NCBI GenBank assembly: GCA_958009085.1
Contig: OY253670.1
Span: 1,488,001 to 1,552,000 of the forward strand
Direction of reading: 5' to 3'
Length of the DNA stretch: 64,000 nt
Source of the DNA: Protoeuglena noctilucae
Taxonomy: Eukaryota
Shown: in pieces, positions 2,403 to 64,000 of the stretch
How the letters are laid out: each line of letters opens with the position of its first letter
Numbering within the stretch: the stretch's first letter is position 1
Translations under genes and position numbers: made by a program
Notes under the pieces: generated by a model
Databases searched by the model: none
What the model was told of the DNA's origin: nothing
What the model saw: the letters and a program-made list of their open reading frames with translations, nothing else

Positions 2403-5400
2403 CTAACCCCGTAGCATGGCGCTGTCCTTGACCGTGTCTGCGCCCGTCACGTAGTGGATCATCGAGCCCAGGATCCCCCGCTGCTTCTCGTGAGACACCC
2501 CGTCTGGCCCACCCACGTCGCTGGGACTCGGCTGTCCCTTCGATGACGCAGCGCTGCTCTGAGACTGCACGGTCCGGTTCACTGCGGCGGCGACAACATC
2601 AGGCATGAGTGAGCACTCAAAGCGCAGGCGACACAGCAGTCGAGAGCGACACCCGACAAGGACCGTGGTCACCAAAATGGCTTGAAGTGTCCATACCCTT
2701 CTTTACCTGATGCGTAGTAGGCCGCGGCATGCACCCCCGGAGGAAGCCTGTCCATCAAAGCGTCCCCCGCACCGTCCCCTGCACTCGCGCCCATCTTCGC
2801 CGGCAAAGGCTCCCCTCCGTCATCTTGCCCAGGTGCCTGCCAGGACCCGCGATGCCCCACTGCCGTCGCGACCCGTTCCCCATCATACGGCTGAATCTCC
2901 CCCCCACCCCCAGCATCTGCACCTAAACTCCCCGCCCCATTAGCCCCGCCGTTCTCACGCCAGCGCTGTGGCTCCCCGCCATCCCCGCCCATGCCAGGCC
3001 CCGCAGCGTCCCCGCCCGTCCCCTCCCCACCACGCCCCGCTACGTACCGTTCTGCCTCGGCCATCAGAGCCTCCACGTCGCCGCCCCACCCGCGAATGGT
3101 CTCCACCAGGAACCCCACCAGCGCCCCACTCCGGGCAGCCTCCCGGGACAGCTGATCCCTGCGTGCAGGAAAGAGGCACCCTCTATCCTACGGCACCCAA
3201 CCCCCGGTTCCCGCCAAGCCCGCCACTCCACCGCCTGTCCCTCGCCTGTCCGCCAGCACCCGCTCCACGCGATCCCAGAGGCCCTCGTAGTACTCCCACG
3301 TGTCCCGGTCCACCACCACACGCCCCTCCCCCGCCTCCCCCGCCACGCCAGCCCCGTCCCCGTTCCCCTGCCCTCGCCCCGCCTCCCCCGCACCATCCCC
3401 ACCCCTGGCCGTTGCGTCTGCCGCCCCGCCCGTCTCCTCCCCTGCCATTGCTAGGGATTGGGAGTCCCTCCCCATGGCTCGCTGGAAAAGGGCCTCGTTC
3501 TCCGCACGAAGGCTGTCCACCTCCCGCATCAGCACCTCCACTCCCGCCACCGCGTCACGACTGCGCCGGACCTGCGGAACACGACCACAGCAGAGTTGTG
3601 TGCGGGGGCCAGAGCTTTGTGAGCCGTGCCCACCGAGACAAAGAGCAACGTCTCACGACACTCGCCTCCTCCAGCAGCGCGTGCAGCTCCCTCGTCGCTG
3701 TCCCGGACAGGTCCGACCCCGCCGCCAGCCTCAGGGCGTCCGGCACGTCCACCGGCCCCGCCCCCGCTGCCGGCCCAGCGCCCTCCGCCGCCCGCGCCGC
3801 CGACACCCGCAGCTGCGCCTCCAGCGCCGCCACCTGTCGCGTCAGCCGCCCCACTTCCTCGGAAGTTCCCGCCACCTCTTTGGTCTCTACAACCGCCGCC
3901 TCCCGGTCCGCCCTCCCTGCCTCCATCTCAGCCACCGCGCGCTGCAGACGCGCCACCTCCGCCCTCGCCTCGTCGCGATCCGCTGCAATGCTCGCCACCT
4001 GCGGCAATCACAAGGACAGGCGCTCCAAACACACGCCCACCCTCGCCAGTGCCGTCCCCGTCTGCACGCCCGTCCCCTCACCTCTGTCGCCTTGTCATCC
4101 AGGCGGCGCTTCAGCGTCGACGCCTCGAACGCCGCCGCGTTGGCCTTCTGCTCCAGCGCCCAGATGCGCTCCTCCACCGATGCACCACTGCAAAGGGGGC
4201 ACGAGCGTCACTTAGTAACCCTGCCCAGTCTTGAACAAAGACCTACGCTCTCGACCAGTAAAGACCGTCTGTCTCCGACCGCATGCGTGGCATGGTGCGC
4301 GCCAGTGCAGCCTCCCCACGCCCCACGCACCTCGCCCCCGCGTCGCTGGGTGCCGCAACCCCCGCTGCCTCCCCGCGCCGCCCGCCCTCCGCAGAGGCGC
4401 GCGCCTTCGCGCTCGCCGCCTCCCCATCCGCCCGCGCCCGCAGCCCCGCCACCTGCGCCGCCAGCTCCGCTGCTTCCCTCTGCGCCGATGCCCTGGCCGC
4501 CTCTGCGTCTCCCAGCGCCTGCGCTTGTGCCGCACACTTGCTCTCCAGAGAGCGGCGCACCTGGCAGAGCACGGCAGAGGTAACTGGTGATCGCCAAAGC
4601 TACTTCAGCGGCCCCACACGCACATGCCAGGCGCACTCCACCAGCCACCCCGTGGGCCGCACCTGCTCCGACGCCTCCAGTTCCGCGGCAGCCCTGGCGA
4701 GCTGTGCCTGGAGAGCCGACAGCTCTGCTCCCGGGGCGGAGGGCGGGGCGGTGGGTGTGCCAGTAGGCGTCCCTCCCCCTGTTGTACTTGTCAGCTCCGC
4801 GATGGCCTTGCTCATGGCGCTGTTCCGGTGCGTCAGGGCGTCCACCTCCCCGGACAGCTGCTCCACGCGGGACCTGAGCGCGGCGCTCTCCTGAAGCCAG
4901 GCACGGCAGGGGAGGCAATGAGGTGAGCACGCGCGATGAAGCCACACAGCCTGGCAGCAGGCCCCACGCCCCACGCGCCTGCTGGGCCCGCTGCGCCGCC
5001 TCCACGGCGTCCCCTCGCTCCTTGGTCACGCGCTGCAGCTCCTCCGCCAGCCTCTCGTCCGCGCCCGGATCCCGGCCCATCTGCCGGATGCGCCCCTCGA
5101 GCCTCTCCGCACGCAGGCGCTCCCGCTCCAGCGCCTGCTCGGCCATGGACAGGCGCTGGCGCAGGACGGACGCATTGCCGGACGCCCCCGACGGCTGGGG
5201 CGCAGGGAAGGGGACACGAGCGTGGGGTGCATGCCATCACTGGCGGGTGGAAAGGGGGGCGTGCGAAGAAGCCATCACCTCCGCTTGCGCCGTCCGTCCC
5301 CCCACCTCCCGCCGCAGAGCTCGATTCTGCTCCTCCTCGAGCTGCAGCTGCGTGCTGAGGGCCTCGTTCGTAGCACGCTGCCCTGCGACCTGGGCCCTGC

Positions 5401-6042: not shown

Positions 6043-6725
6043 TCCTGGCCATTTTCTGGGAGCACGCAAAATCCGCAGTTCTCATGTGAAGCGATAGCGA
6101 AGAGAGCGAAGGGTTGCACTGCCCCGACGTGGGACTGCAGCTGATTCAGTCGCTCCGTCGGCTGAGAGCATTAATCTGCGTAGCCCGTGCGTAGTCCGTG
6201 ACATGAGCACCAGCGAGCCGGGCGAAGAAGCGATGCCATGATGTTTTCTCACCCGTGCCCAAGCCTTGGTCAAAGAAGGCCACGTCGCTGTCCTCTCTGC
6301 TAGGCGGTCCCTGCAAGATGCGGCTACCAAACGCTGGACCCGGCTCCATCACCACGTGTGGCCATGGCTCGGAGGCGCTGCCTCGACGAGCGCTTCAGAG
6401 GGCCAGATGAGAGGCAAGCACAGCGATGGATGCGCTGTGCAAACTGCCACGAGCACTTGTGATCCCATCCGCGCCGCGGGAGGGCCTAAGAGACTCTCTG
6501 AGAGCAAGGTCCGGCAGTGTCGCCCGCGTGCCAGATCTGGCTGGAGCGAATATGATTGGCTGTGGCTGCCAGCGAATGCTCCCATCGTGTCCTTATTCGT
6601 ACTAGGCGCCATCGTCGCTCGCCTCGGTCGCCTCCACGGCCTCCGTGCACCTGGAGCTCTTGACCCACGAAACAAAAGGATCGGGCTGTCGTCCCCGGCC
6701 AGCCTCCGGCTGTCCTCCTGGTCTG

Positions 6726-8009: not shown

Positions 8010-11000
8010 ATGCCTTTCGTGAGCCAGATCTGCTCGGGGAAGGATTCGGGCCGCAGGGTGGGGCCCGGAGGCACCCAGTGCCACGACTCGTCCATTACGC
8101 TCCCGTTCACGACGCCGGTGAGAACGGGCTGGCTATGGGCGCAAGCCACCTACTCCTTCATTCGCGAGCCAGTCGTTGCCAGTTGTCGGTCCCGAGCAAC
8201 GCCTGCGGGCCCCTCTGACGCAGGCGTGCGTTCACAAGCTGGGCTCTGCCCGTCCCGAAGGGTGGCATGCCGACCAGTTCCGGTGCTACAAGAAGCTCGG
8301 CAGCGGGTACAAGGGCGAGGTATACCAGGTGCGAGGGCGGTCGCGCGGCCCAAGCTGATGGTCCTGAGAGCTTCCCTCCCGCCAAGACCCCACCCCACCA
8401 TACGCGCCCGGCCCCCGCAGTGCACCGACACCGTCTCCGGCTCCGAGGTGGCCGTCAAGACCTACCGCAAGTCCCGGCTCAGCCAGGAGGAAACCCTCAA
8501 GGTCCTCTGGGAGATTGAGCTGCAGGTGCGTGCCAGCAGCACGGTGTCGTGTCCTGCCACGCTGCGCACGCTACACAGCCTTCCCTGTCGCTTTGGATAT
8601 TGCATCTCCGGCAGAAATCGACGCCTCGGCCATGCACGCTCTCCCACACCCACGGCAGCTCTCCACGACCGCCCCCGCTCCCGCCTGCAGGGCAGCCTGT
8701 CCCACCCCCACGTGCTCCTCCTCTACGCCGCCTTCGAGGACAGCGACCACCACTACCTCATCCTCGAGCTGGCCACGGGCGGCGACCTGTTCGAGGCCGC
8801 CCACCGCCAGCTCTTCCACGAGGCGAACGTGGCCCAGCGCGTGCTCTTCCCCATCCTGTCTGCCCTGGACTACATGCACGCGAGGTGAGATACGCTGCCG
8901 CGCTGGCAGGGCGGCCCGAGCGGGCCCGCAGGCAGCTGGGCAACAGCAGACATCAGCCGCGTGCGCTTGCAGGAACATCTTGCACCGCGACCTCAAGCCG
9001 GAGAACCTGCTCTTCACCAAGGAGGGCGTGCTCAAGATTGCCGACTTCGGGCTGGCTATCAACCAGAAGCAGTACCGCCCAGTGTCCAGGCTCGGGACCC
9101 TGGTGAGGCTAAGCGCGGCTGCAGGGCAGTGGAGGGCGCCCGGTGAAGCCAGGGGAGCGCGGTGTTGCGGCACTCTCACAGAAGCCACGTGCCTGGCCAG
9201 CACGCAACGAGGCAGCTCCTCGTGTCCCAGCACCTGTGCCCTTGCATGAGCCCTACCCGCTGTACCCCTCACCTCCCCCAGGAGTTCATGGCCCCGGAGG
9301 TCCTCGACGCCGGCGCCCACGCCCGGGAGACGTACGTGGGCAACCTGAGCAACGGCAGCGACGCCATCCCCAAGATGTGGCGGGCGGGGTACGACGAGAA
9401 GGTGGACGTCTGGAGCACTGGGACCCTCACGGTGAGTGGTGCTGCTGTGCCATGTCCCTTCCCTGAGTGGCACCTGGCGCATGCCATGCACTGAGCGTGC
9501 TCCGTCGCTCCTCTCCGCAGCTGGAGCTGCTCTCCAAGCGCAGCCCCTTCAAGCGCGCGGACAAGGAGTCGTGCATGAACGCCATCCGCAAGGGGCAGTA
9601 CCTCCTGCCCTCCTTCCTGAGCGGCCCGTGCCGTGCTTTCGTCCAGGCCTGCCTTCAGGTCGACCCCAAGAAGAGGCCCTCGACCAGGTGAGCGTGGCTC
9701 GCCATCCCTCACAGACCGTCGCTCGCACGACCACCGCCGTGCCCCTCAGCCCCTGGATGGCTCACTGCCTGTCGCGACTACCGCCCCCGCCATTCCGCTG
9801 TGTCGCAGAGAGCTCCTGGTCCACCCCTACCTCACCCTCCATGTCGACGCGGCTGCCAAGATGGCCAGCCGGCAGACCAACCCCGACTCGTCCAGGCGAG
9901 CTGCGCTGCGCCCGAGGAGCGCTCTTAGCCATGCACGCCATGCAGGTTCTGGAGTTGTCCCGTGCTGGCAGATGGGATGGCCGAGACTTGCGAGGTGCAT
10001 CGACGTCTCTGACCCAGCGACCCATCCGCGCCTGCAGGCTCACTGCGGACGTCGATCCCAGTGTGGTGGCCAAGAGCGACTCCCAGAGGACCCTCGGCAG
10101 CGACAACGGCTCGCTCGTCACCCCCCATGGCTCTGCCGAGGGCGCCTGGCAGACCCCCGTCAAGCCGTCCCGTGCCGCGGGGCTGCCGACCTCCCCCGAG
10201 GGCACGGAGCCCAGCAACAGTCCCGCGACCACCGTGGCCGTCAGCGGCGTGCGCTCTCCGGGCTCCTCCCCCTCTGCCGTCGCCAGCCCCACCCTGTCGA
10301 CAGGCGACCATGAGGCGACCCCCGAGGGGGCGTCCGAGGAGGCGTGCGGGCGGGACAAGAGGGACCGGTGGTCCCTGCGGAGGAGGCTCTTCGGCCAGGG
10401 CAAGGCCAACGCGACCCGCACCGACTCGGTGGAGATCCGGGCCGAGGACGTGGAGGTGGCCGCGCACAAGGGCAGCTCCACGAGGAGGGAGCCCGCCAAG
10501 GCCGCGGCTGCCGCGCTGGATGCCGAGAGAGCGCCCTGCGAGGCGCGGGCGGAGGGACCGCTCGTGGCCTGGACGTTCGGGTCGGGCGCGAGGGGCGCGG
10601 GGGCCAACGCCACCTTCACCCAGGACGACATGCGCAGTGCGGCTGCCGGGAAGGCCCCTGGGGTCCCCAAGGGGGCGGCGAAGGAAGTAAAGAAGGCGGG
10701 AGAGGCGCCCAAGGTCCTGCGGATGCCCAAGTGAGGGCCTTGGCAGAGCATGGGCCGCACGCATGCGCTCGCCCAGGGAAGCTGGCCCCGGCTGTCACCC
10801 TACGCTCTCCAGCACAGCTCCTCTTGTTAACTTGCCCACGCAGAGCGCAGCCCAACATGTCGGATGTGAAGAAGATGACCGGGTCTCTTCTCGAGAACAT
10901 GACCTCCAAGCGCAACCGGCGCGTCCTGAAGCCCACGGCCGCCCCCGGGCCCGGCACACCGGGCAGCACCCGTACCAACGCGCTGGCTCTTGGTGGCAAA

Positions 11001-13818
11001 GTGTCCTCATCGACGAGCGAGGACCGAGGTGAGCTGCATGCATGGCTGGCTCTGGTTACCACTGCCAGTGCCTGCCAAACACCCCGCCCCTGTGCATCTT
11101 TCAAGCACCTTTCTTGCATTTTGCAAACGTCACCGCAATCTCGCCTTCTTCGTCGTCGCAGGCGCCCTGCCTCTCTACCGCGCGCTCCGCCCCGGCGCCC
11201 CCACGGTCGGCCACGCCCGCTCGCTTCTGGCCGTCGCCACCGCCCCGACCTCGCGTGCGCCCCATCTGGCGTCGTCCCAGCCGGCCAGCGTCCCTGCCTC
11301 GCCCCCGTCTGCCCGCCGCGCCGACGGCTCCGCCAACCCCGAGCGTGGGCTCTTCCTCACCCCCCCGCCCTCGCCCCCCGCCTCGTCCCACGAGGCCGGG
11401 GACCCTGCCCGGCGCCGTGTGGGCTTCGCGCCCTCTCGCCGCAACATGCTATGCCTGAGCCAGGACTCTCGCCAGGGATCGACGGCCGAGGCCAGCAGCC
11501 CCGCCGTCGCGTGCACGCCCGCGGCTGACGCAGCGCATGTGGCTTCGTTGCTGGCCACCGAGGAGGTCGCGGCGGCATCAGCGGGGCTCGCAAACGAGAC
11601 GCAGAAGGCCAGGCAGGCGTCTTACCACGGCATCCGCGCTGAGGGCGGGGCGTCTGACGAGGTGACCGCGCGGCAGCGTGCGATGCCATGGCAGCTTGGA
11701 CGCGATCCGCTCTGCTTTGACTCAAGTCGGGTGCGTGAGTAAAGCCATTGGAGTATTTGCCTTATGCAGATGGACGCTCAGGGCCAGCTCGCTGCGCCCA
11801 GCCTGGAAGGGACGTGGGAGAGCTGCAAAGCGGCAAGTGGTTACCAGGACGACTACGGCCTGTACATCCAGAAGGAGGCGGACTCCGGGAGCGGCAGTGA
11901 CACCGTCAGTGTCGGTGAGTCCAGGCGGCTGACCATGCGGCAGCAGTTGTGCCCACCGCCCCGGTGCTCTGCGGCGCCAGTCCCAAGCATCTCGACCTCG
12001 ACTCCACGCCTCGTCCCACGAGGCCGGGGACCCTGCCCGGCGCCGTGTGGGCTTCGCGCCCTCTCGCCGCAACATGCTATGCCTGAGCCAGGACTCTCGC
12101 CAGGGATCGACGGCCGGTGCCACCGCCCCGACCTCGCGTGCGCCCCATCTGGCGTCGTCCCAGCCGGCCAGCGTCCCTGCCTCGCCCCCGTCTGCCCGCC
12201 GCGCCGACGGCTCCGCCAACCCCGAGCGTGGGCTCTTCCTCACCCCCCCGCCCTCGCCCCCCGCCTCGTCCCACGAGGCCGGGGACCCTGCCCGGCGCCG
12301 TGTGGGCTTCGCGCCCTCTCGCCGCAACATGCTATGCCTGAGCCAGGACTCTCGCCAGGGATCGACGGCCGAGGCCAGCAGCCCCGCCGTCGCGTGCACG
12401 CCCGCGGCTGACGCAGCGCATGTGGCTTCGTTGCTGGCCACCGAGGAGGTCGCGGCGGCATCAGCGGGGCTCGCAAACGAGACGCAGAAGGCCAGGCAGG
12501 CGTCTTACCACGGCATCCGCGCTGAGGGCGGGGCGTCTGACGAGGTGACCGCGCGGCAGCGTGCGATGCCATGGCAGCTTGGACGCGATCCGCTCTGCTT
12601 TGACTCAAGTCGGGTGCGTGAGTAAAGCCATTGGAGTATTTGCCTTATGCAGATGGACGCTCAGGGCCAGCTCGCTGCGCCCAGCCTGGAAGGGACGTGG
12701 GAGAGCTGCAAAGCGGCAAGTGGTTACCAGGACGACTACGGCCTGTACATCCAGAAGGAGGCGGACTCCGGGAGCGGCAGTGACACCGTCAGTGTCGGTG
12801 AGTCCAGGCGGCTGACCATGCGGCAGCAGTTGTGCCCACCGCCCCGGTGCTCTGCGGCGCCAGTCCCAAGCATCTCGACCTCGACTCCACGCCCGCAGAC
12901 ACGCCAACTAGGCTCAGCGGCAGGGATGACGTGAGGGTGGGCCCTAACGCCTGCAAGTCACCCATGACTGGCAAGGGGCTGTCACGCCTCAGGCGAGCAC
13001 GCATGCCCTCAGGCGTAGGCCATTGAGACCATGCACCATGGAGTCCTGGCCAACATGCCTCGTCCCGTGGCTTGCAGGAACTCGGTCAGCCAGCGCAACG
13101 CGAGTGAGGACGGCGGCGCCAGCAGTGAGTGGGCCGGGTGGTGGGAGGGCAAGCGCATCTCCCCCATGACGTCCGGCGCCTTCAGCGGGTGGTTCGAGGG
13201 GGCCAAGCGGTCCTCCTCGTCCCGCCGCAAGGCTGCGTCGGAGAGGAAGTCGACAGCGGACTCGGCGGCCTGCAAAGCTCCGAGCGTGAAGGGGCAGCCC
13301 ACCGCACTTGCCATCCAGGTGAAGGAGGGTGCATCGCTGGTCGAGACGACGCTTGTGTGCTGGCGTCAAGCGCAGGTCGGCAAGTTGGCCGCGCCGTGTG
13401 CTGAAGTCGTTGCTTTCTTCCGCCCAGTGTAGGAGCCGCATGGAGTGGGACGGCAGGCTAAGAGGGGTGCCAGCCAGTTCGCCAGGGGACCCCGCTCGTG
13501 AGCACGTCATCCGGATGGAGCACATGGCCCGCCCCGCCCAAGGTGAGGGTCGATGGGGCAGTGGCAGCAGGGCACTTGATGCCTGCGCTGGTGTCCGCGG
13601 CACTTCATCCCTCCCTCGGCCCGCTTCTGACCCCAGACGTGCGCTTCTTCGAAGGCGTCCGCGGCGACTTCATTGTGGGCCCTGGGGGCGGCGCCAGTGG
13701 CGTCCTGGCTATGGTGGACCGGGCGGTGGCCAACGGAGCCCAGAGCGCCCGGGCGGTGCACGAGGCCTTCGCCGCCACTGCCGCTCGGCGCTTCTTCGTC
13801 CAACAGCATCAGGCGTAG
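8010..13818 (+). CDS. Aurora-like Ser/Thr kinase with long low-complexity C-terminal tail (3' end approximate)
   Basis: GSGYKGEV, VAVK, HRDLKPEN, DFG, GTL|EFMAPE and DVWS motifs across spliced exons 8224-9895; tail exons to about 13818; GC-AG introns at 9896-10037 and 12993-13077. Confidence 0.9.
11236..12893 (+). repeat. Direct duplication of 775 bp (11236-12010 and 12119-12893) with an extra 110-bp copy of 11379-11488 at 12007-12116
   Basis: Sequences appear identical at offset 883, and the ORF track gives identical ORFs at 11678/12561 and 11357/12240. Junctions: 4-nt microhomology cgcc and a 2-nt gt linker. Confidence 0.95.
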
Positions 13819-14069: not shown

Positions 14070-16866
14070 CTAACCCTTCTTGGGCCAGATGGTGTTCCAC
14101 GTCAGGGTCATCTTGATCTGCCCCGTCGCCACCTCCTGCATGGCAGCAGAGGCGCCATCAATGAGCAGGGCGATAAGCCAACGTTAACGCATGCGCCCCC
14201 GCCCCTCAAGCCACGCCCCACGCCCCTCCAGGTCCCACCTGCAGCATGAAGTTCTCGACGATGCGGTCGGCGTCGACCACGTCCGACACGTTGATCTTGA
14301 GCCTGCCGAGGCTGTTGGGCTTGCGCACGATGGTGCGCACCGACAGGAGCTTGCGCGAGGTGTCGACCACCTCGACCAGGAGCTTGCAGGCGCCGTGGAC
14401 CTCGCAGAAGTCGAACGACTCGTTGAAGACCGGGTTGCGCGTCGCGGGGTCCACCTTGGTCTCCTCCTGCATGAGCTTCTTCTTGCTGTCCTTGTCCAGC
14501 ACCGTCAGACGCACCATGGCCGAGGCCTTGGGGTTGATCAGGTTGAAGCACCTGAGGCCACGAAGCAGGCTCGTCTCTCCAGCGCAACCAACGGTGCTTT
14601 GGCCTGCCACCGGGCAACGACGTGGCAGGCCACCCACCTGTCCACCTTCACCCCCAGGATGCCCTTCTGCTCCTCGGGGTTCTCGGCGTACCTCCTCGCC
14701 AGCATCATGCGCTTGTACTCGGTCGTGTGCGGGAAGGGCTCGTACCGCACCTCGCACTGCAGCGTGCCGCCCGAGCCGTGTTTGGTCTTCTGGGGCACGC
14801 GGACCTGGGGGGGACAGCACGGCCAAGGAGCCTGTCGCATTGCGCACGGACAATATGCAAAGACGGGCGCAGTGCAGCTAGCCCTGCACGGACCACCGCC
14901 CCGGCCGCGCACCTGCAGGTACTCTCCCGCCATGGACTTGGTGAGGATCTCCGAGCCCGCCGCCAGGGAGAAGTGGGCGCGGAGGAGCTCGACGTCGATG
15001 CGGAGGTCGTGCATGACGACCAGGGTGAGCTGGTGATGCTGGGCCGAGAGGACGGGGAGGAAGAAGTCGCCCTCGAACTGGTGCGAGGACTTGTTCCACG
15101 CCGTGACGGTCTTGCGCTGCGTCAGGGGCTGCAGGGGGCGGCCCTCGCCGTCGCCGTCCAGGACGCGCGTCGTGAGGAAGCGGACGTAGGGGTCCACCTG
15201 CGGGGACGGGGATGCTGGGGAGAGCTGGCACGGCGGCCCTGGCTACCCGTCGATGCCAACGGCTCTGCCCCAGCCCCCTCTCGGCGAGCCAGGCCCCATG
15301 CGCGCTCGCCTTGGAGATGGAGAGCGTCTTCCCGGGGCGCAGGTCCTCGACGCGGACCTTGCGGATGTGGAGGATGCCGTCGGGCTCGCCCACGGTGCCC
15401 TGGTCGATGGGGATGCCCAGGGTGCGGGGGAAGCCCATGATGGCCATGACGAGGCGGGAGAAGACGAAGTGGACGGCCGTGTCCACGCCGGGGAAGGCGG
15501 TGAGGTCGTAGGGCAGCAGCGTGGAGACGTCGAACTTGATGTCGGGCGTCTCGGGGAAGGCCAGGCTGAGCGTGCCGAAGAAGAGGAGGGCGGGCTGCAG
15601 GCCGTCGAGGCTGATGCGGATGGGGCCGTTGATGATGAGGTTGGAGATGGTGAAGAGAGGGAGCGTCAGGTAGTAGCCCAGGAAGCCCAGCTTGAAGCCC
15701 AGGCGGACGGCCATGTCGGAGCCCCACATCAGGTGCGCCTCGAAGGCCGCCTGGTCCTCCACGCTGCGGGGGTCGCGGGCAGGCGCGCATGAGAGTGCGT
15801 CCGCAGGAACCTCAGGCAAAGCAAGGAGCGCCCGCACCAGGCGAGCACAGGGGGCTGTGTTGTGCTCCGCCCCCGCGGACATCACCTGGCGTAGCTCTTG
15901 ATGCCGCCGAGCTTGAGGGGCCGGGAGCCGAGGTCGACTTCGATGTCCAGATTGAAGATGGGGAAGAAGAAGAAGAACGAGTTGATGTACTTGCGCACGT
16001 CCGACACCATGTTGTCCACCGAGGCGCGGATCGACGGCCACATGGCCTGCCGGGGGCGGACGGGGCACTCAAGGATGACGCAGGCGAGCAGAAGGGGCAG
16101 CCGCGGCAGCGAGAGCGTGCAAGCGGCGCATGTGCCCTCGCCTCAATCACGTCGTTGATCCAGGCCACGCGGTTGAAGTCCTGGTGCGTGAGGAACTTTG
16201 GCTGGGCCTCCTTGTGCTGGAGGAGCCATCCCCCGATGATGGGGCGGGACGTGGCCGTGTCCCAGCTGGTGGAGGCGTCGCGCTTGCGGTGGAGCAGGGA
16301 GAAGCGGGGCACGCCAAGCACGAGGTACTGGAATGCCACATGGCCGACCAGCCACCCGGCGACGAGGCCCACGAGGCCCACGGTGGTGACGAGGTCGAGG
16401 TTGTTGTAGATGTTCTCCCTGAAGCATTGCAGCAGCGTCTGGTCGAGCTGCAGGGAGGGCACGGGGCAGGGATGGGCGCCTTTCATTCAGCCCTTGCAGC
16501 AGCACAATGCTCGCCAGGCTGCAGGGGCTCACGTCCTTGATGAGGGGCCAGGCCCACTCAGAGATGGCGAGCGTTGCGGCTTCGACGGGCGCGCGGACCC
16601 ACGCGGGGATCCATAGGTACAGGGCGCAGACGATCACCCAGAGGGCCGTGAGGATCCAGAGCGCTGCGGAGGGCGCGGATCGACGGCGGTTGGCTCTCCA
16701 GCTGACAATCCGAGCGAGCATGCCAGTCACGGCAGGCACGCGCGTCACCGATCCGCCAGACGGGCGCGGCGAGGTACAGCCCCCAGGAGAGGGCCGCTTT
16801 GAAGGGCCAGAGCAAGAGACCCCCGATGGAGGCCAGGAGGCCCATGAACATGCTTCCGATGCCCAT
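14070..16866 (-). CDS. Synaptotagmin/E-Syt-like protein (TM-SMP-C2)
   Basis: Hydrophobic N-terminus; SMP start PKFLTHQDFNRVAWINDVIE|AMWP, DLGSRPLKLGGIK, PDIKFDV...DLTAFPG; C2 motifs VDPYV and NPVFNESFDF; stop TAG at 14070. Confidence 0.85.
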
Positions 16867-20800: not shown

Positions 20801-21128
20801 GCATCGGAACGTGGAAGATGCCAATCTCGGAGCTCTGCAAGGAGGAGCACGGGGGCGCCATCGCCAAGACCTTCCGCATGGACGGTGCGTGGGGGGACGG
20901 CTGGGTGGCATGCGACGCGTGCGGGCGGGCAGCAGCAAGCGCACCCCTCGTCCGGCCCCTCCCGCAGGCGAGTGCGACGAGAAGCTCATCCCCAAGCACC
21001 GCCGCCACTGGAACGAGAAGAAGCTCGGGCCGCCATACGTGCCCGAATACACCCCCACGGACAAGCCGGGCCGGTCCTCGTGCAAGATCGAGTTCGAGGC
21101 CATCTTCGCCTGGCTGGGGTACCACTGA
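17894..21128 (+). CDS. Synaptotagmin/E-Syt-like protein (TM-SMP-C2-C2)
   Basis: TM helices; SMP CEWLNIIVSEIFP...VEPVLDWAKPPGIKSMKFRRFTLGTRP...VWPDRLMVP; C2 GALYVKIICAKGVPKVDVAGWAEPY...VELWDKDRITKDTRIG; all traced introns are GT-AG. Confidence 0.88.
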
Positions 21129-21275
21129 GGGCAGCAGGCGGCACCTAAGCGGACAACGCGCAGGGTCTGACGTGCATCTGACCAGACTCTTGTTTTCGGC
21201 AGCATTGAAGTAGCAGCAGCTGATCGCACCGCCAAGAGGCGGTCTATACGAGTGTTCTATCCCAGAACACACGCG

Positions 21276-25503: not shown

Positions 25504-25963
25504 ATCGAGGGATGGCTCGGGCGAGGCCGGCCCGCAACCACGGTGTTGTTAGCGTCCCGGGCGATGGACGGCCCGCGAGGGAAGAGCAAGGTGGGGATAT
25601 CTCAATCAAAAAAAGTTCAATAATGGAAGTGCTATGAGCCTGGGCGTCGTCAGGGGCTCATGCATAGGGATCTACGCGCCACGTTCATGCAAAGGGAACC
25701 CGCAAACAAAGCTGCATCGCCCGTTGAGCCGGCCAATGACATGCCGATCACTTGCTGTCGCTCTGATGCAGGGATTGGCTCTGTATCTTTGCTGGACATC
25801 ACACACTGACACTGAAACTTCTCTTGATGTCAGTGAAAAGAGCAGCTGAGAGCCCCGAGCCGGATTGCATCGCCGGCATCGTGCTGTTTGTTTGTTTGCG
25901 CATCACTTGCATACCATCGTGCCTCTGTACTTGCTCGCTACTCGCTCGCTTCGTCCTCGACTC

Positions 25964-44559: not shown

Positions 44560-44780
44560 CTTCCCGCCGATGCTTGGCCTGATTGAAGTGTTGAGGAATT
44601 GTACAATGCACTCAAGTCTGACTCACTCGCATCGACCAAACCAGCTGGCGACAATGATGCTCTGACGCATGAGCAGCGCCGGTCTGGATGAGTCAATCGC
44701 GCGACGTCGTCGGGAGGTTCACAGAATGCAGCTCAAGCTGGTTTCGATGTCAAGCGAGGGCAGGAGTCGTCACTAGGGCG

Positions 44781-47700: not shown

Positions 47701-50700
47701 AGGGCCGCGTGGACGTCGTGGAGGCGCTCCTCGCCAACGGCGCGGACCCGTCCCTGCAAGCCCGTAACGGCATGGTGGCGCGCGACTGGGCTACCCAGTT
47801 CGGACACACCGGTGACTCGCACCCATAAGCCTGCGCCCTGCCTGCACTTTGCCACTCTCCATGATAGAATGACCCACCACAGCGCACCCCATCGCACCCC
47901 GTCGGTCCGCAGAGGCCGCGTCTCTGCTGGAGGCATTTGAGCGGCAGAAGCGGGAGCAGGACGCGGTGGCATCAGACACCATTGCACTTGCTCATTACCA
48001 GCTGAACGCCCCCGCTGAGGAGATCGACACGGCGCTGGTGGTGCGGCTGCTGGAGTACATCCGCTGTGGTGGACAGGGGGGGCGTCCCATTGTGGACGGT
48101 GCTGTGCTCGTGTTCCTGCCTGGCTGGGACGACATCCTCCGCGTCAGGGATGCCCTCGAGAGCCACCCCAAGGGACTCTTCCGGTGAGGGGCAGGGGTTG
48201 GGGGGTGTTGTGGTGAGGGATGCTTGATAGTACTCAAGCGTTTGGAAAGGTGCACGGTGGAACAGGAGAGTGGTTCGCATGAGAGGGGCAGCTAAGCATT
48301 GGACTGAGCCACCACTTGACGCCGCGTGTCCCCCCTGCTCTCTGCAGGCCCGACACGCACGTGGTGCTGCCCCTGCACTCCATGATCCCCTCCGCGGAGC
48401 AGCGCAAGGTCTTCAAGCGCCCTCCCCCAGGCGTCGGCAAGATCGTCCTGGTGAGCGCTGCAGGCTGCGTTTGACCCTTGCCAGCCATGCCCTCCTTCGC
48501 TGCAGGTTGTATGCACTCCTCGCCTGGCTTCCGCATTCGCCCATCTCGCCAGCCGCGCCCATGCTGAGACAGCCCACCCCCATCCCCCTGCAGTCGACCA
48601 ACATCGCTGAGACGGCCGTGACGATCGACGACGTGGTGTGCGTGGTGGACGCGGGCCGGCTCAAGGAGAAGAGCTACGACCCATACACGGGCGTGGGCAC
48701 GCTGCAGTCGTCGTGGATTAGCAAGGCCTCGGAGCGGCAGCGCAGGGGGCGGGCCGGGAGGTGCCAGCCGGGCGTGTGCTTCCACCTCTACTCCCGCACG
48801 CGCTCCCTCTCCCTCCAGGTCAGCGCCCGTGCCAGCGCCAGCGGCCCCACCGCCTCTCGCGCGCGCTCCTCACCTCGCGCTGCTCTGCAAGCAACATCGT
48901 TGCCTAGCGCCCTCACCTGACACGGCTCTATACGCAGCGTTGCCCATCGTGGTCCCTCTCTGTGCTTTCTTCATTCAGGACTTCCAGCCCCCCGAGATCA
49001 AGCGGTCTCCTTTGGATGAGCTGGCACTGCAAGTGAAGCTGCTGGGGCCACTGGCAGGGGGCGGGGCGGGGGACGTGCGGATTGAGGAGTTTTTGGCCAA
49101 GGCACCCGAGCCGCCCCTCAGGTGACCTGAGCGAGAAGCGATGGGCTAAGCAGAGGCGTGGCTGTGGACTGTTCCAGCTTGCTTTTCACCCTGTCATCGG
49201 GCTTGCTGCTACTAGGTAGCAGCTCGGTGTGGGGCCATGCAATGTCCCGTCATCATGTCGTGAGCATCTCTCGCCCGCAGCCATGCCATTAGCGCCGCCG
49301 TGACTCTCCTGGAGGACATCGGAGCGGTGGACGGCCAACAGCGACTGACGCGCATGGGTCGCCACCTGGCCGCCCTGCCCCTCAGCCCCCGCGTGGGGAA
49401 GCTCCTCCTTTTGTCTGTGCTCTTCCAGTGCCTCGACCCCATGCTCACCGTCGCGTGCGGTGAGAGGTTGCTGCATGGCCCTTATCACCAGCCCAGGCCC
49501 TTCCCACTTCATAGGCGGCTGCCGTGGTGCATACAGGGACCATACCATCTGGACAATTGCTTAGCACCTGTTTCTGTGGCAATTGACCGTGACATTCGAC
49601 CCTAATCTCAGTCCCTCTGCCCTCCCCACCTCCCCGCAGCCAGCGCCTACCGCGACCCCTTCGTGGCCCCCATGGACTCTGCCTCGCGACGCGCGGCCAA
49701 TGCCATCCGCAAGCGCATGAGCCAGGCGGGGGGAGGGGACAGCGACCACCTGACCGTCGTGGTGGCACTCAGGCGAGGGGGCCGGGGGATTGCTGCTGGT
49801 GCCGACTCATTACATATGCGGTGTCGGGTCACTGCGGATGCGAGTCACTGCTGCTGCTCTGTCACTGCTGATGTGCTGATGCCGAGTCATTGCGGATGCC
49901 GAGTTACAGCACCGTGCCTGTGTCGCTCTCTTCACCGCCTCTCTTATATCCCCACCTGCACAGGGAGTGGGAGGCGGCGCGTGAGAAGGGGGACGACTTC
50001 CGCTACTGCGCCCGCAACTTCCTCTCCCCCGCCACCATGAACATGCTCGACGGCATGCGGCGGCAACTCCTGGGGGAGCTGCAGAACCGGAGCCTCGTCC
50101 GGTCGCTGGCAGAAGCATCGGCGCACATGAGCGACATCGGTAAGGCCACGTGCCGATAGAGATACTGACAGTGGTGCCGCTGCTAACCGCACGATGTCGC
50201 CTGCAGTGCAGGCCCCTGCAGCGCGGCGTGTCTCGCGCACCCCTGCGCTTAACTGACCCCCGCTCTGCGCGCGCTGTTCCCAGGCGTGCTGCGCGGTGTC
50301 ATCGCGTGCGGCATGTACCCCCAGGTGGGCCGCCTGATGGAGGTGCAGCCGGGGAACGTGGCGTCCCAGAGGGCGACCATCGTCACGCGCAAGGGCGACA
50401 AGGTCAAGATACACCCGGGGAGCGTCAACGCCGACTTGCAGGCGAGCGGGGCGTGCTTGGACGGGGGGCATGGGGCGACCAGGGATGCCGGCTGCGGGAG
50501 AGCCAGCCTAGCTGATCTGCGTTGTGCATGGTTATCGTCTCATGTAACGAGTGTCGCATCTCCATCTGTCGCATTCACCGCCATTGCCTCGCCGCCTGTC
50601 GCAGGGACCCCTCCGCGACCCCGCGGACCCCTCCCCCGACCTGGAGCTGCCGCAGCTGGTGGCGCACGATGACTTGGTAAGAGGAGACGCCGCCACGTTT

Positions 50701-51879
50701 GTGAGGACGTGCACGACGGTGGGACCCCACGCGCTGGTGCTGGCGTGCCACTCGCTGCGGGTGGAGGGCGGCGGGGAGGCGTGGGCGGCGTTTGCGCGTG
50801 TCGCCGGCACTGGGGCGGTGAGATGCGCATGCTGGGCAGCGTGCTAGGCAGCATGCGGTCGGTTGGGCCGTTTGTGCAGTCGCGGTGGTGCCTCACCTGC
50901 AGAATGGCGACGCTGAGGAGGACGACGGCGCAGGGACTCCCATGGGGCGGGGAGGGGTGGAGGTGGAGGATGGGGGCGACGTGGGGGCAGGTGGGGCCGC
51001 TCATGTCAAGCGCACATGCAGTTGCGGGGCTATGCTCGCGGACCCTTCGACCCCGCAGGCCGCGCTGGCTCGCCCGCTGTGGCTTGGACCCCTTGCATAG
51101 CATGCAGGCGGCAATGCCCACTCTAACCCCCACCCCTCGCAGACTTGGACGGCGCTGTTCTCACTGCGGACGGCTGGCTGCGTTTCCTCGTCGACGATGC
51201 CGCGGCCCCGGCCCTCGTGACCCTGCGCCACCGCCTGACGCAGGCCTTCGCCTGGCTGGTCGAGCGGCCGGGGCAGCCCATGCCCGCGCACCACGCGTCG
51301 GCGGTGCAGGCCATCCGCAGCCTCTTCAGCGCGGAGGGGGGGCTCGCGGTCATGCACGACCCACGCAGGGCAACCATGGCGGGGGTGAGGGACCTGCGGG
51401 TAGCCTGGGTGTTGGATGCATGCCGCAGCGCATGAGACTGGCACTCGGCCTTCTCTTGTTAGGGCACGCGGACGCGCGCTGCGGTTGCTGGCCTGGCCAG
51501 GCCCTCCCTTGCTGACCCCTGCGCCCCTGCGTGCTCGCCCCTGCAGCCTTCGCGAGGCCCGGGCCGTGGGTACGGACGCGGACCTCCGCGGGCGGTGGTG
51601 GTGGAGCCGCTGCAGCAGTCGGGCGGTCAGGGCCGTGGCGGTGGGTACAGCAGGGGTGGCGGTAGTGGGGCTTCCGGGCGAGGGGGCGGGCGGGGGCAGG
51701 GTGCAGAGGGTGGGGGAAGGCGGGGCAGGGGAGGCGGGGGACAGGCGGGCGGGGGGGAGGGTCGGGGATATGGAGGGGGCAGGGAGGGTTACGGGGGTGG
51801 GAGGGGTCGGCCCAGGCAGGGCGGCGGTGGGGCACGGGGGACAGGGCGCGGGCGGGGGATAGCCGTGGCGCCGCTGTAG
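44781..51879 (+). CDS. R3H-DExH-ankyrin-HA2 RNA helicase (YTHDC2/DExH6-like) with RGG tail
   Basis: R3[46 protein letters not shown]; ankyrin [50 protein letters not shown]2 LT.MG.HLA.LP; IHPGSVN; about 20 introns. Confidence 0.93.
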
Positions 51880-52037
51880 CTGAGAACATCGCAGGCAGTG
51901 GACTTAGGCTCGACAGCGGGCCAGACTTGGTGTGACAGGTCCTGACGTCGACCTCCAAGCGTTTAAGGGCTCAAGCAAGGCTTGGCATGAAGCCGCAGCG
52001 TCAACTGGGACTGCCTCCGCGGGCTCGCGCAGGAAAG

Positions 52038-53221
52038 TCACCAGCGACCCGTCAGCCCCCCAATGACTTTGACAAGGTCAAAAATGTTACCCTTCTTGGA
52101 CCTCGCCCTCCGGTTCTCCTCCATGGCGCGCTTGACGGACGCGGGCGTGCGCGGGTCCTCGGTGGCGGCAGCCAGGGCCGCGCGCCAGGAGACGAGCAGG
52201 GCGAAGGTGACGGCCATCGACACGGCGATGAAGGGAGTGGGAGGGACGCGCATCTGGAGCAGCCCGCTACGAGGAACGGCGAGGGTGGGGCCATGAATCG
52301 CACTCCCCATACTTCAACCAGGCATCCCCGCCCTCGTCATGCGTGGCGGAGCTTGCGATGGCTCCCGTCCCCAAGTGAGCCAACGAGAGCTTCGCTGTCT
52401 TGACGACGACGCTCACCGGATGGCGAGGCCCGCGGGAATGCCCACGGCCCAGCATTGCGCGGCCTTGGCAGCGGCCGGCACCGCCTCCCAGCCCCGTGCC
52501 GCCTTCCCATATCCATCCAGCCAGGCACACGACCCCAGCCACCCCAGCACGAAAGGCAAGGCCGTCCCCAGCGTCTCAAGGCTCGCCACCGTCTCATGGT
52601 GGGAGCCCCTGTGGCAGCGACATGGGGAGCGATGAACGGCTGCCCAGGGTCGTTGCTGTGTCGACTGACTATGTATCCTATTTGTCAGAATATGATACAA
52701 GCATCGATGCGCTCCTTGCCTGCCGATGGCGGCGAAGAGCACCAGCGCCGCCACGTCCCCCGCGACCAGCAGCGCCACGCGCCCGGCCCCATCCGAGTCC
52801 CTGCCCGCCTGGTCGACGAACGCGACGCCCTGGACATCCACGCCCGGGTCCTGGACTCCGTACACCTGCGAACATCAAGTCGATGCTCGCGGTCGCATGC
52901 AGGGCGGCGCGGGTGCGGAGATAGGCCTTCAAGGACACTGCGCTCACCTTGGTGCCGGGCGCCACGAAGCCGGGAGGCGGCGGGGGCATCGTTCGAGGGA
53001 GGCCGCGCTTAATCAAGTCCTCCTCTGTCAGGACCCGCCCAGAAGATTTGGCGGGAGCGTTGCTCGGCGCGGAAACCTCCGCGCTGCGCCTGGGATCCTC
53101 AGCTCGCACACACACGGGGCCCCGCAGGACGGCGCAAGCCGCCCCACATGGCAAGGCTCGCGTGAATGACGGGTTGAGCACCCTGCGACGAGGCGTCGCG
53201 AAGTTGGCATGACAATGGCAT
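52038..53221 (-). CDS. DUF3054 family plastid membrane protein; start approximate
   Basis: GDVAALVLFAAIGR|GSHHE...TALPFVLGW...WAVGIPAGLAIR...PPTPFIAVSM...KKGNIFDLVKVIGGLTGRW*; GC-AG intron at 52609-52719. Confidence 0.82.
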
Positions 53222-53550
53222 GACGAGGGGACTCCAACACCGCGGATGGGTCACCCGCTCCCTCGCGTGCGCCCTTGCCTTCGAATGGCGCTCATCGCGG
53301 GGACCGATAAGGAGGAAGGGAACCAACGGCGTCGAGTGCCACTGCCTCAGTGCGCGAGCGGCTCAGATGTGCTGCGATCGTCGTCCACTCTCGACGGGCG
53401 ATGCTGCACGCAGCCGATTCGTTCAAAAACGCCGCGGCTGCTTGTTTGTTGCGGGACTTTGCCAAGGTGGCGCAATCATAGTCAGCGCGAGACGCTGTCA
53501 GAGAGCGACAGGCGCCAGGGCAATTCGTGTTTTCGGGGCAGGGTGTCCCC

Positions 53551-60431
<6,881 letters not shown>

Positions 60432-61100
60432 CGCGTGTCGTCGCACGCCAGTCCGCGGAGAACTCAAGCTCCTAAATGCAGGCTTACAATCGAGAGGGGC
60501 CCCGCCAACGGAAATCAGGCTCAATTGCATGCTCCCATGCTCGCAGGCCTAACCCTCACTGGCTGGCAGATCGCGAATGGCTGCATGCAGGCAGAGGCGT
60601 TGGGCTGAGAGCTGATGGCTGGCACGGCCCACTTGTCTGGCGCTACGCCCGTCTGCCAGGGACCATTGAGCAACTTTGTGCACGCGCTTTGCCATCATTA
60701 CTTTCGTGGTTGAGCTCAAACCCCTTCTGCGGGACACGGTGGTCCAACGACCAGCTGCATGCCCAGCTTTGTGCAGGACCCTTTAAAGAGCTCCCTGAAG
60801 GTCATCTGAAGGAATCCATAGCAACATCAGCTTTAGGACATTGAGTATTGTATGGTCACGAGGTGGACGTCGTCTGAAAGCAGGCGGTCCGCGCAGGCGA
60901 GGAGCGGTGCAGGGCGCAAGCGGGCGAAAGCGTGCTGAGCGAGGCTGAAGCCCCGCTGTGGAACTCGCTTGACTCTTCTTGAGGTGTTCGCGTCATTAGC
61001 TAGCAACAGGCGCTTTAACCTCTGCCAAGCGACGTCAAAAAAGCCAGCCAAAACCATTCGTTGACGTTCTGATGTGCAGGGCCAGCCGGCGTCGTCCGGT

Positions 61101-64000
61101 ATGGCAGGGACGTCGACGCAGACGGACACAGTCGAGCCCAATGGGAGGCCCGATGACGAGTCCCGCCCTCGTGGGGCAAAGCAGGTGGGTGTCGCGGCGC
61201 GGCAGAAACAAGAGACCGCTGTCTGCTCAGGACACGGTGGCACGGTGTCTCCCTGCAGAGTGTCAGTATCCTGCACGAGGGGTCGGAGGAGACCGGGACG
61301 TGCGGCGAGGGCCTCGTCTTGTTCCTCAAGTTCGGGCCCTACACTCGACGGCGCGCGTGGAACGGCGAGGGCAGCGCGCCTCGCCCAGCGCCCCTGCATC
61401 TTTCCATCGCTCGAAGCAAAGGCATTTACCGCGCAGTCTGGCCCGCTACGCGCAGGGAAGACGTGGCATGACCTTGTAGAGCTTTTCCAGCAGACCTTCT
61501 CTCTCCCCCCCGCGATGCTTTTGCTTGAGGACGACTTCTCTTTGCGGCACAGGCGAGTGTTTACTCGTGGCAGGCGGAGAGGGAGCTTGGCGCCGCGCAG
61601 CCGCGCGCCAAGACGATGTTGTGCTTGGGCCCCTGCAGAGTGTATGGCGTAGAGTACAGCAACTTCAGTTTGTCGGACCTTTACCCCCACGCGGTCGTCG
61701 AGCTTCGGGAGCCTCGCAGCTGGGCGGCGGCCAACGGCGGCGAGTCGCACACGGAGCAGCTGCGCAGGGATGCAGGTGGGCGGTTCCTTTCCGAAGTCCC
61801 TGCTGTCGCAGTGGGTGCTTGACGTGCCACATCATGCATTCTGTCATCGCATCTTGCCCCGCTCGTCTCCCTCAGCGGCTGTCGATGTGCCCCGGGCCAA
61901 GGGGGACCCCCCAGGGTCGCTGGGTGGGGCGGGGAGCGGCGAGGAGGCGGCAGGGCTGGACGACGACGACAAGAGTGAGCGCCTCGCTGCCAAGCAGCCG
62001 AGTATGCTTTCCATCCTGACGCTCCTCGCGTCTTCCAACTATGTGCCGCTGCTCTGGCTGCTGCAGTCGCCCAGGACCCCGAGGGCTTCCTGCGTTCGAT
62101 GCGGGAGAGGGCGCGCACGGCCATGAACGCCGGCATCCAGGCGCGGATCCGCGACAGGCGGCCCAAGTGGCTGCAGAAGGCGAGTGCGGGAGAGACACCT
62201 GCGCATCAGCGACCGTGCCCTGCGCATGCGTGGCATCTCCCAGCCCCACGCTTGTCCCCACGCTCCCTGCAGGTGTGGCAGTTCCTCGACGACCCGTCCA
62301 GCTCCCTCGGGGCACAGCTCTGGATGGTGTTCATGATCTCCGTCATCGTCTACAGCACCATCACCTTCATGGTCTCCACCCTCCCTTACTACAACAAGGC
62401 GAGTCGCTGGCTTTGGCAACCTCCTCACGCATCGCACTCCCACTCCCACCCCCACTCCCAACCCCACTCCCACACAGGAGATGGTCGACAGCCCCTTCGG
62501 CCGCTGGTTCGCCATGGAGGCCGTGGCCATCGCCGTCTTCACCTTCGAGATCGCCCTGCGCCTGGCCTCGTGCAAGAGCATCCTGCAGTACTTCTTCCCC
62601 CTCGTCCCCGGCGCCGACCCCTCCCAGCAGACCCGGAGCGTCAACCTCATGAACTGGGTCGACATCGTGTCGGTCGTGCCCTTCTACGTCGAACTCGGGT
62701 TCCAGCGCAAGAGCTCCGTCCCGGGACTGCAGGCGCGGGGCTGGCGGACGCGATGGCACGTGTGATGGACTGACCATGCGACTGCGACACGCTTGCAATG
62801 TGCCAGGCGCTGGTCTCCACCTGTGCCCGTCCACCTATGCCGATATCTACCTGTGACCCCATGTCATGTTCTCATTTTCAGATATCCCCTTCTCTCTCCC
62901 CCCCAGGTGCTTCGGGTGCTGCGCCTGGTCCGCGTGTTCCGCCTCTTCCGCGTCAGCCGCTCCTCCATCGAGGTCTTCCGCCGCACCATGGCCGCCAGCT
63001 CCCACCCCATGTCCATGCTCCTCTTCTTCGTCGCCATGGGCGTCGTCATCTTCGCCAGGCGAGCAAGGGGGGGACCTGAGCAGGGGTTTTTGTGACGACA
63101 CAATCCTAGGCACAAGCATGATACTTAGGCGAACCCCGGGCCCGTGTCGATAAGGGTACAAGCATGATGCCTAGGCAAACCCTGCCAGTGCCTTGCGCCT
63201 CGTGCAGCCTGGAGTACTACTGCGAGAGGGGGACGTACGACACGGCGCTGGTGAGGGTGATGTTGAGACAAACAAGAAGGGGCGCAGTGCACTGAGAGGT
63301 CCAGGCCTAGTGAGAGTGAGAGTGAGAGTAGACTTGTTCATTCGTGTTCGCAGAAGATCTGGAAGCGGCCCGTCGGGTTTCATTGCCTCTTTGACGCCGA
63401 AGAGACGGCCTCGGGGGTGGCCATCAACGACGCATGGATCGCCAACAACGCGCCCACGTGCGTCGTCAGCCAGCAGATATCCACGGTGAGCCAGCGCCTG
63501 CCATGCATGCGCACACCGGGGTGCCCCACCCCGAGCACCCGGCAGTGACCACGACCGTACTTGGTGTGCCACCCCCGCGGCTCACCCCAGCCTCATACTG
63601 TCCCTGCCCCTTCCTCAGACGCATGCCGTGCTGGACTGCCTGGTGGAGTACCGCCACGTGCCCTCCCGGTCCCAGAGCGACTGCCTCACCGTGTACCAGG
63701 TGTCGCCCTTTGCGTCCATCCCGGAGTCCTTCTGGTTCACCATCGTCGCACTCATGGCGGTCGGATACGGAGACGTGTACCCGGTCCTGGCGAGTTTCTC
63801 ATTTGCACAATCAGCATTTGCGCTGGGAGCGACAGGCGCGGCTGCGTGACACAGTGAAGAGCTCACCTGCCCCTGCAGTGGTACGGCAAACTCATGGCGT
63901 CGCTGGTCATGATCTTCGGCGTCCTCATCATCGCCCTGCCCATCTCAGGCAAGTGCTGTCACCAGGATGCCCCTCCAGCAATGCTGGCCGCGCCCCTCGC
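61101..64000 (+). CDS. Voltage-gated K+ channel (Kv-like, S1-S6); 3' end runs off window
   Basis: LDDPSSS, FTFEIALR, NWVDIVSVVPFYV, S4 LRVLRLVRVFRLFRVSR, pore SIPESFWF...VGYGDVYP, S6 GVLIIALPIS. Confidence 0.93.

Follow-up and report, generated by a model that had tools for sequence, protein, structure and literature searches.

Background

GC-AG introns, which begin with GC where most introns begin with GT, have been described at high frequency in several algae with GC-rich genomes. The survey of Iwata & Gotoh (2011; PMC3033335) reports a GC-AG share of 1.3% overall (2.46 million introns, 61 species), 39.6% in Aureococcus anophagefferens (69.5% genomic G+C), 22.2% in Micromonas pusilla CCMP1545 (65.9% G+C), 7.7% in Chlorella sp. 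and 2.7% in Micromonas RCC299 (64.1% G+C). High shares are tied there to genomic G+C, and the 5' ends of U1 small nuclear RNA (snRNA) are given as canonical in M. pusilla and Aureococcus. GC donors are reported at 56-65% of junctions in Emiliania huxleyi (Feldmesser et al. 2014, PMC4028052), and among pelagophytes GC-AG introns are put at about 14-17% for strains of Aureococcus and about 14% for Pelagomonas calceolata (bioRxiv 10.1101/2024.10.30.620910). The present analysis concerns a 64-kb stretch of contig OY253670.1 (positions 1,488,001 to 1,552,000, hereafter the window, numbered from its first letter), in which GC-AG introns make up roughly 25-33% of the coding introns.

The window is like Aureococcus and M. 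pusilla, as these are reported, in a G+C content of about 66-70%, a GC-AG share in the tens of percent, AG acceptors, and GC-AG introns with lengths like those of GT-AG introns. It differs from the algae of the 2011 survey in that its nearest named relative, in trees of two genes, is a pedinophyte, not a member of the Mamiellophyceae or the pelagophytes, and in that its genes are far more intron-dense (the model of one gene, for a GH2 beta-galactosidase, has 20 introns); the share given here comes from one window. E. huxleyi is similar in its G+C content (about 65%), in its RNA-confirmed GC-AG introns, and in that GT-only prediction mis-sets many junctions, but in this haptophyte GC donors are reported as the majority, whereas here GT donors are (about 70%). 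Pelagophytes share the high GC-AG frequency, attributed in the 2024 preprint to high genome GC, but are stramenopiles and intron-poor, with 0.19-0.92 introns per gene. Compared with animals and plants (about 1% GC-AG), the dinucleotides are the same and their frequency is 20-30 times higher. Our search of the literature found no report on the splice-site dinucleotides of pedinophytes, and the main text of the genome preprint for Pedinophyceae sp. YPF-701 does not contain the word "splice". Because GC-AG-rich algae of high G+C have been reported since 2011, the phenomenon was already known, and the window represents a further lineage rather than something new. A reading of the letters of the window (the original prediction), which listed 33 GC-AG intervals and one further GC donor at position 63949, had cautioned that such donors are known in other algal lineages, correctly so (PMC3033335, PMC4028052).

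RNA evidence for GC-AG splicing

Contigs from three metatranscriptome runs (X9, X10, X12) and one DNA run (X4) were aligned to positions 44001-64000, and for each of the best-supported 15 of the 62 joints so obtained, all sequence-equivalent cut positions were enumerated. Each of the 15 has one GY-AG reading, GT-AG in ten cases and GC-AG in five, and no equivalent cut yields GT-AG at any of the five. On the minus strand these are 52609-52719 (cag|GCAAG, in a DUF3054-like gene; runs X9, X10 and X12), 53183-53278 (aag|GCAAG; runs X9 and X10) and 53710-53809 (in the GH2 gene, with ends reading CT..GC; all three RNA runs). On the plus strand they are 62733-62906 (cag|GCGCG) and 63059-63207, both in a voltage-gated K+ channel gene and both seen in all three RNA runs. 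The intron at 53183-53278 is absent from the original list. None of the GC-AG joints occurs in the DNA run X4, whose 57-kb contig spans the whole stretch without difference. The GC-AG introns at these joints are thus removed from mRNA with GC at +1/+2. As a class, GC introns have acceptor and length features in common with GT introns: the acceptor is CAG in both classes, the upstream pyrimidine fraction is 0.68-0.71, and the median length is 106-118 nt for GC introns and 112 nt for GT introns.

We infer a sixth GC-AG intron, at 55481-55586 on the minus strand, from the coordinates of record 23 of run X9, in which a 114-nt piece that starts at 55367 is followed immediately, at record position 937, by the piece covering 55587-56046. 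At the far edge of the window, RNA contigs of X10 and X12 diverge from it exactly after position 63948, and the ten exon bases before that point contain no GT. This loose end fits the GC donor listed at 63949 (plus strand, cag|GCAAGT), whose intron covers 63949-64000 and continues past the window. Twenty-seven other listed introns have no RNA joint among the best-supported 15 of 62.

RNA contigs leave the window elsewhere as well. At 47415, 50723, 62931 and other positions they match it and then switch to unlike, paralog-like coding sequence (the contig that diverges after 50723 carries a GYGD-type pore motif). These diverging contigs are likely chimeras or relatives within the metatranscriptomes.

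Share of GC-AG introns

Coding introns were counted independently with a self-trained exon-chaining predictor. It combines codon log-odds with weight matrices for donors and acceptors that both intron classes share, admits GT as well as GC donors, and begins with flat models of the splice sites. It converged on 18-20 genes with 106-122 coding introns. GC-AG introns are 34 of 106 when position +2 is ignored and 31 of 115 to 37 of 122 when +2 is learned, that is, 27-32%, and they are 5 of the 15 best-supported RNA joints. Since the sensitivity of the predictor is about 80%, the true number of coding introns should be near 155, which agrees with the earlier estimate of about 155. The share of about one fifth given with that estimate (34 of about 155, 22%) was right in lying far above 1% and is probably a slight underestimate, the better value being nearer 25-33%. 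Of 18 gene models, 11 carry at least one GC-AG intron.

Donor context and intron class

All 33 listed intervals start with GC and end with AG. G stands at -1 in 33 of 33 and AG| in 30 of 33, and the intron starts are GCGAG (25), GCAAG (4), GCGCG (3) and GCGTG (1), all as first described. Neither a U12-like donor (RTATCC, as opposed to the major-type AG|GYRAG) nor a U12-like branch motif (TCCTTRAY) is present in any of the 34 GC introns or of the 84 predicted GT introns. Judged by these motifs, the GC-AG introns are U2-type and not U12-like.

The original prediction had further held that GT donors tolerate other bases at -1 and that GC donors are compensated by pairing on the exon side. The contrast at -1 is not significant: G occupies this position in 97-100% of GC donors and 92-93% of GT donors (Fisher p 0.19-0.66), and in 10 of 10 RNA-supported GT donors. 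The contrast lies one base upstream, where A occurs at -2 in 85-87% of GC donors versus 54-56% of GT donors (p 0.001-0.004), and in the RNA-supported set AG| precedes 6 of 6 GC donors versus 4 of 10 GT donors. Within the intron, +5 is G in 97% of GC donors versus 81-82% of GT donors, and +3 is A in 19-24% versus 1%. With +2 ignored, the median donor score is 5.8 for the claimed GC donors and 3.8 for the predicted GT donors. Counts of used and unused motifs give a similar picture. In sense gene context AGGCGAG serves as a donor 24 times and stands in exons without being used 7 times. Where A at -2 is missing, GGCGAG is a donor 4 times and unused 24 times in exons and 9 times in introns, and GGTGAG is a donor 29 times and unused 7 times (5 in exons, 2 in introns). 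In this small and partly predicted data set, the position that discriminates GC donors and compensates for them is -2 (with +5), not -1. Exon-side compensation therefore stands as far as the stronger rest of the site and the A at -2 are concerned, and falls at -1. In animals and plants, too, GC donors reportedly match the consensus more closely at the remaining positions of the donor (Burset 2000; Thanaraj & Clark 2001).

A probable tolerated mismatch under GC bias

The canonical 5' end of U1 snRNA is AUACUUACCUG. A C at +2 would cost one base pair with this end, and because of that cost GC would be tolerated just where A at -2, G at -1 and G at +5 pair well. GC-biased mutation or biased gene conversion (G+C at third codon positions, GC3, is 0.91) would push T to C at +2, and selection against that change, if weak at well-paired donors, would let GC donors settle at a high equilibrium share. 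In the window, coding-sequence GC3 is 0.906 and intron G+C 0.663, and GC pressure is a plausible driver. Position +2 nevertheless remains under selection, since T still occupies it in about 70% of donors, far above the pyrimidine background. We hold it very probable that these are U2-type introns in which a GC 5' splice site is a tolerated mismatch and whose high share comes from GC bias.

Several points weigh against this reading. The U1-pairing and mutation-selection arguments are ones that we infer. The donor-context contrasts are not fully independent of the method, because GC donors were among the sites on which the shared weight matrix was self-trained (the contrasts are still there when the model ignores +2). 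G+C content alone is a poor predictor of the share, Micromonas RCC299 being reported with 64.1% G+C and 2.7% GC-AG (PMC3033335). The number of GC-AG introns is uneven from gene to gene, with 5 of 7 in the K+ channel gene and 0 of 9 in one of two genes for membrane proteins with SMP and C2 domains. The share figures describe one 64-kb window and not a genome, and most of the introns behind them are drawn from the predictor (which finds 13 of the 16 RNA-supported introns, and 10 of 16 in its final neutral rounds), since the joints considered are the best-supported 15 of 62.

If instead the spliceosome were altered (in the U1 5' end, U1C, Luc7 or Prp8) such that it reads C at +2 as well as T, the high share would be an adaptation. 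In favour of such a change, G+C content alone leaves the shares of relatives unexplained (22.2% GC-AG in M. pusilla, 2.7% in RCC299), and Iwata & Gotoh suggest that base modifications or proteins of the U1 small nuclear ribonucleoprotein may be responsible (PMC3033335). GC donors in the window, though, need a stronger rest of the site, as expected of a costly C/A mismatch with U1 and not of a fully accommodated C, and this need for compensation argues against U1 pairing with the C. U1 5' ends are, moreover, reported as canonical in the two best-studied algae with high GC-AG shares (PMC3033335). A scan of the window with Rfam gave 0 matches, and hence no snRNA gene. We regard an altered spliceosome as distinctly improbable.

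Tests of the intron borders

Many of the listed GC-AG borders could in principle have been mis-set, the true introns using a nearby GT or the intervals being coding insertions. Homology bears on this directly. In alignments by tblastn with green-algal GH2 proteins, homolog residues abut exactly at the borders of 57093-57196 (588/589 in protein P0003, 564/565 in P0008) and at those of 57660-57869 (481/481). The latter interval is 210 nt long, in frame and stop-free, and the homologs lack its 70 codons; because this stop-free intron lies inside it, a 215-residue GH2 "exon" aligned with homologs over just two separate parts, 40% and 27% of its length. Pfam positions, scanned on the flanking exon pieces, are contiguous across 57093-57196 (235/236 of Glyco_hydro_2_C), 57660-57869 (118(+1)/120), 43812-43896 (97/98-99 of CCB2_CCB4) and 62733-62906 (Ion_trans), and approximately so across 40567-40656 (about 157/158 of Pkinase). 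The exons downstream of 27587-27663, 27830-27908, 50442-50604 and 58435-58533 have no Pfam match, which is neutral and not contrary. A homolog search with K+ channel exons returned 0 of 330 candidates at E <= 1e-5, so for the channel-gene introns without RNA joints the evidence is ab initio.

Splice phase was tested by comparing the codon-usage frames on the two sides of each interval with the claimed phase, using random GC..AG pairs with coding-like flanks as the control. Phase is consistent in 32 of 33 claims versus 16 of 56 random pairs. The sole failure is 37632-37792, where the coding flanks are near zero. Read through in frame, every claimed intron has a negative coding log-odds.

The predictor recovers 21-23 of the 33 claimed GC-AG introns, and its ab initio models agree exactly with 21 of the 33. 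Forbidding GC donors lowers its Viterbi score from 1644 to 1413 and degrades the proteins it yields. Against six homologs each, blastp bit scores fall from 690-838 to 486-669 for the GH2 protein (best match 838 to 669) and from 781-891 to 664-727 for a helicase (best match 891 to 727), and 5 of 6 homologs of each protein lose 139-317 bits.

In favour of mis-set borders are the phase failure of 37632-37792, the equally good in-frame GT at 50779-50902, the six claims for which phase is the support, and the fact that several claims are stop-free in read-through, three of them also in frame (40567-40656, 57660-57869, 62180-62272). These three, one on the minus strand (57660-57869) and two on the plus strand, are invisible to open-reading-frame reading alone, being multiples of three and stop-free. 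Against it, the five RNA joints permit GC-AG only, homologs or Pfam models abut exactly at three more introns (57093-57196, 57660-57869, 43812-43896), and GT-only models match homologs less well. The use of nearby GT donors, which would have undone the original prediction, is not seen at the five RNA joints, and a comparable-scoring in-frame GT within 45 nt is lacking in 32 of 33 claims (50779-50902 being the one that has it). For the validated subset the idea of mis-set borders is largely refuted, and as a general explanation it is very unlikely.

The GC-AG introns are thus real, and most of the list of about 34 donors holds. Twenty-four of the 33 intervals have exact independent support from RNA, homology or the predictor; two more (4891-4978 and 34872-34953) share just the GC donor with predictor models; six have splice phase as their support (those starting at 12993, 38337, 43360, 50779, 61365 and 61553); the donor at 63949 is backed by the RNA loose end; and 37632-37792 is unsupported.

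There is practically no chance that the GC-AG introns descend from a mobile "introner" element with a GC donor, although M. pusilla and Aureococcus, the two algae with the highest GC-AG shares in the 2011 survey, are rich in introners. An all-against-all blastn of 129 intron sequences gave four similar pairs and no family (two pairs from a tandem duplication at 11662-13077, two chance matches of 18-23 nt), so that the sequences are unique in the window and, on this comparison, neither repeat-derived nor introner copies.

GC-AG introns along the window

The GH2 beta-galactosidase gene (minus strand) holds a series of GC-AG introns. Besides the RNA-supported intron at 53710-53809 and the one placed at 55481-55586, both also found ab initio, it includes 57093-57196 (cag|GCAAG), the 210-nt intron at 57660-57869 (again found ab initio), and 58435-58533 and 58699-58824, both predicted ab initio, phase-consistent, and with a stop in read-through. 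A candidate extra GC-AG intron at 56551-56649, not in the original list, is proposed by the ab initio model. At 55789 one X9 RNA contig has a single C>A difference that is absent in X10, X12 and the DNA run and that probably reflects variation in the population or a mistake in assembly.

In the K+ channel gene (plus strand), the two introns with RNA joints are accompanied by 62180-62272 (ab initio, phase-consistent), 62399-62477 (ab initio, with a weak hint of a joint in record 11 of X12, which lies on 62476-62729 from its position 19) and 63790-63878 (ctg|GCGAG; ab initio, stop in read-through). Upstream of the channel gene model, the claimed introns at 61365-61455 and 61553-61638 are phase-consistent, have weak coding flanks, and fall outside the predictor models. 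Inside 62399-62477, the plus strand at 62435-62473 is a CCCAC-rich, low-complexity run on which several X4 contigs of 31-33 nt lie; one X4 joint there carries inserted letters that resemble a plant-type telomere repeat (C strand), probably an artefact of the assembly graph.

The helicase gene (plus strand; R3H, ankyrin and DEAH domains, DExH6/YTHDC2-like) has GC-AG introns at 47534-47657, 49773-49963 and 50442-50604, all found ab initio, the last two also noted as phase-consistent. The claimed intron at 50779-50902 (gag|GCGTG) has uncertain borders: the predictor prefers 50771-51142, also with a GC donor, and an in-frame GT at +39 scores equally. In the CCB2/CCB4 gene (minus strand) the Pfam-supported intron at 43812-43896 has the donor atg|GCGAG; the claimed intron at 43360-43456 is phase-consistent, with a putative acceptor, and its upstream exon ends at Pfam position 182 of 195. 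The 90-nt, in-frame intron at 40567-40656 (plus strand) lies in a protein kinase gene, and the predictor read through it.

Of the plus-strand claims between 34 and 39 kb, 38337-38418, in the IFT43 gene, is phase-consistent, and 37632-37792 is the interval that failed the phase test. The third, 34872-34953, in a DUF493 gene, has a supported GC donor and a putative acceptor (the predictor uses the same donor with an acceptor at 35148). On the minus strand, 35925-36012, in a FAD/amine-oxidase-like gene, is predicted ab initio and phase-consistent. An ataxin-10-like gene (plus strand) has ab initio introns at 27587-27663 (cag|GCAAG, stop in read-through) and 27830-27908, where the Pfam match to Atx10 stops with the final residue of the exon and the downstream exon is unmatched. 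A C2-domain membrane protein gene (minus strand) has two, 15198-15309, with coding flanks of 43 and 36 nats, and 16047-16141, which is phase-consistent; both are found ab initio.

Toward the start of the window, 9896-10037 (plus strand), in a protein kinase gene, and 3572-3665 (minus strand) are both predicted ab initio and phase-consistent. At 4891-4978 (minus strand, cag|GCGCG) the donor is supported and the acceptor plausible; the predictor pairs the same donor with another acceptor, and the exon at 4792-4890 has a weak bZIP_1 match (E 0.005). The claimed intron at 12993-13077 (plus strand), which falls in the tandem duplication, has an uncertain donor: the predictor uses the same acceptor with another GC donor, at 12808, and the upstream coding score is 0.1.

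The host lineage and the value of the observation

G+C is 0.636-0.717 in every 4-kb bin of the window, which is densely filled with short exons separated by introns of about 80-200 nt. Pfam searches of segments defined by codon bias identify eukaryotic genes on both strands, for a WD40 protein, protein kinases, the two SMP/C2 membrane proteins, ataxin-10, BCCIP, TMEM17, PTPLA, IFT43, CCB2/CCB4, the R3H-ankyrin-DEAH helicase, a DUF3054 protein, the GH2 beta-galactosidase and the voltage-gated K+ channel. The presence of IFT43 and TMEM17 suggests a flagellate, and that of CCB2/CCB4 a plastid. For the helicase and the GH2 protein, the top matches with a named source come from green algae (core green algae), and in quick maximum-likelihood trees of these two genes, with taxa drawn from search hits alone, the sister in both cases is Pedinophyceae sp. 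YPF-701, with a support of 99 for the helicase and 100 for the GH2 protein in the SH-like approximate likelihood ratio test (SH-aLRT) and protein identities of 56% and 48%. Because core green algae supply the best named matches and the pedinophyte is the partner in both trees, the host appears to be pedinophyte-related rather than a Micromonas, haptophyte or pelagophyte. Pycnococcus provasolii was dropped as a candidate host as well; the homolog searches with the two genes brought up no named protein that was nearly identical. Provisionally, the window would come from the nuclear DNA of a marine green alga whose G+C content is near 67%, related to YPF-701 yet distant from it, which would imply a deep divergence. 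The YPF-701 genome is described as 28 Mb, 70% GC, and with the strongest codon bias among the green genomes compared (bioRxiv 10.1101/2021.10.04.463119). Against a protein atlas, a GH2 exon matched bacterial or unlabelled GH2 clusters only. The segment 54001-64000 is present in DNA runs from marine metagenomes and from a coded "organism A", as well as in four metatranscriptome runs.

With the window, the pattern of high G+C and a high GC-AG share gains another, phylogenetically separate lineage of green algae, a modest biological point that opens no new question on its own. Its main value is as a warning for annotation. Since 11 of 18 models hold GC-AG introns and GT-only models lose homolog bits, predicting genes with GT-AG introns alone in metagenome-assembled genomes of algae like this one would corrupt the majority of multi-exon proteins. 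The introns also form a clean, small data set on compensation at -2 and +5. A bolder proposal is that in the pedinophyte-related lineage GC-AG introns came to make up 25% or more of the introns of the whole genome, independently of M. pusilla, together with a lineage-specific change in reading the 5' splice site that lowers the cost of C at +2. We think it unlikely; if true, it would be the highest GC-AG share reported in green plants and algae, and a natural experiment on how +2 is read.

Other features of the window

A region of about 5 kb at 21200-26400 has no gene model, weak codon periodicity and G+C up to 0.72. Just before it lie the two SMP/C2 genes, a divergent pair in which 14070-16866 (minus strand) has 3 GC-AG introns of 8 and 17894-21128 (plus strand) has 0 of 9. 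Tested as paralogs for GT-to-GC conversion, the two are 20% identical over 195 residues and have no intron position in common. The tandem duplication, of about 883 bp, occupies 11662-13077 (plus strand) in the tail of a kinase gene model. The exons at 11770-11914 and 12653-12807 share a peptide start, and the introns at 11662-11769 and 12545-12652 are identical (100% over 108 nt).

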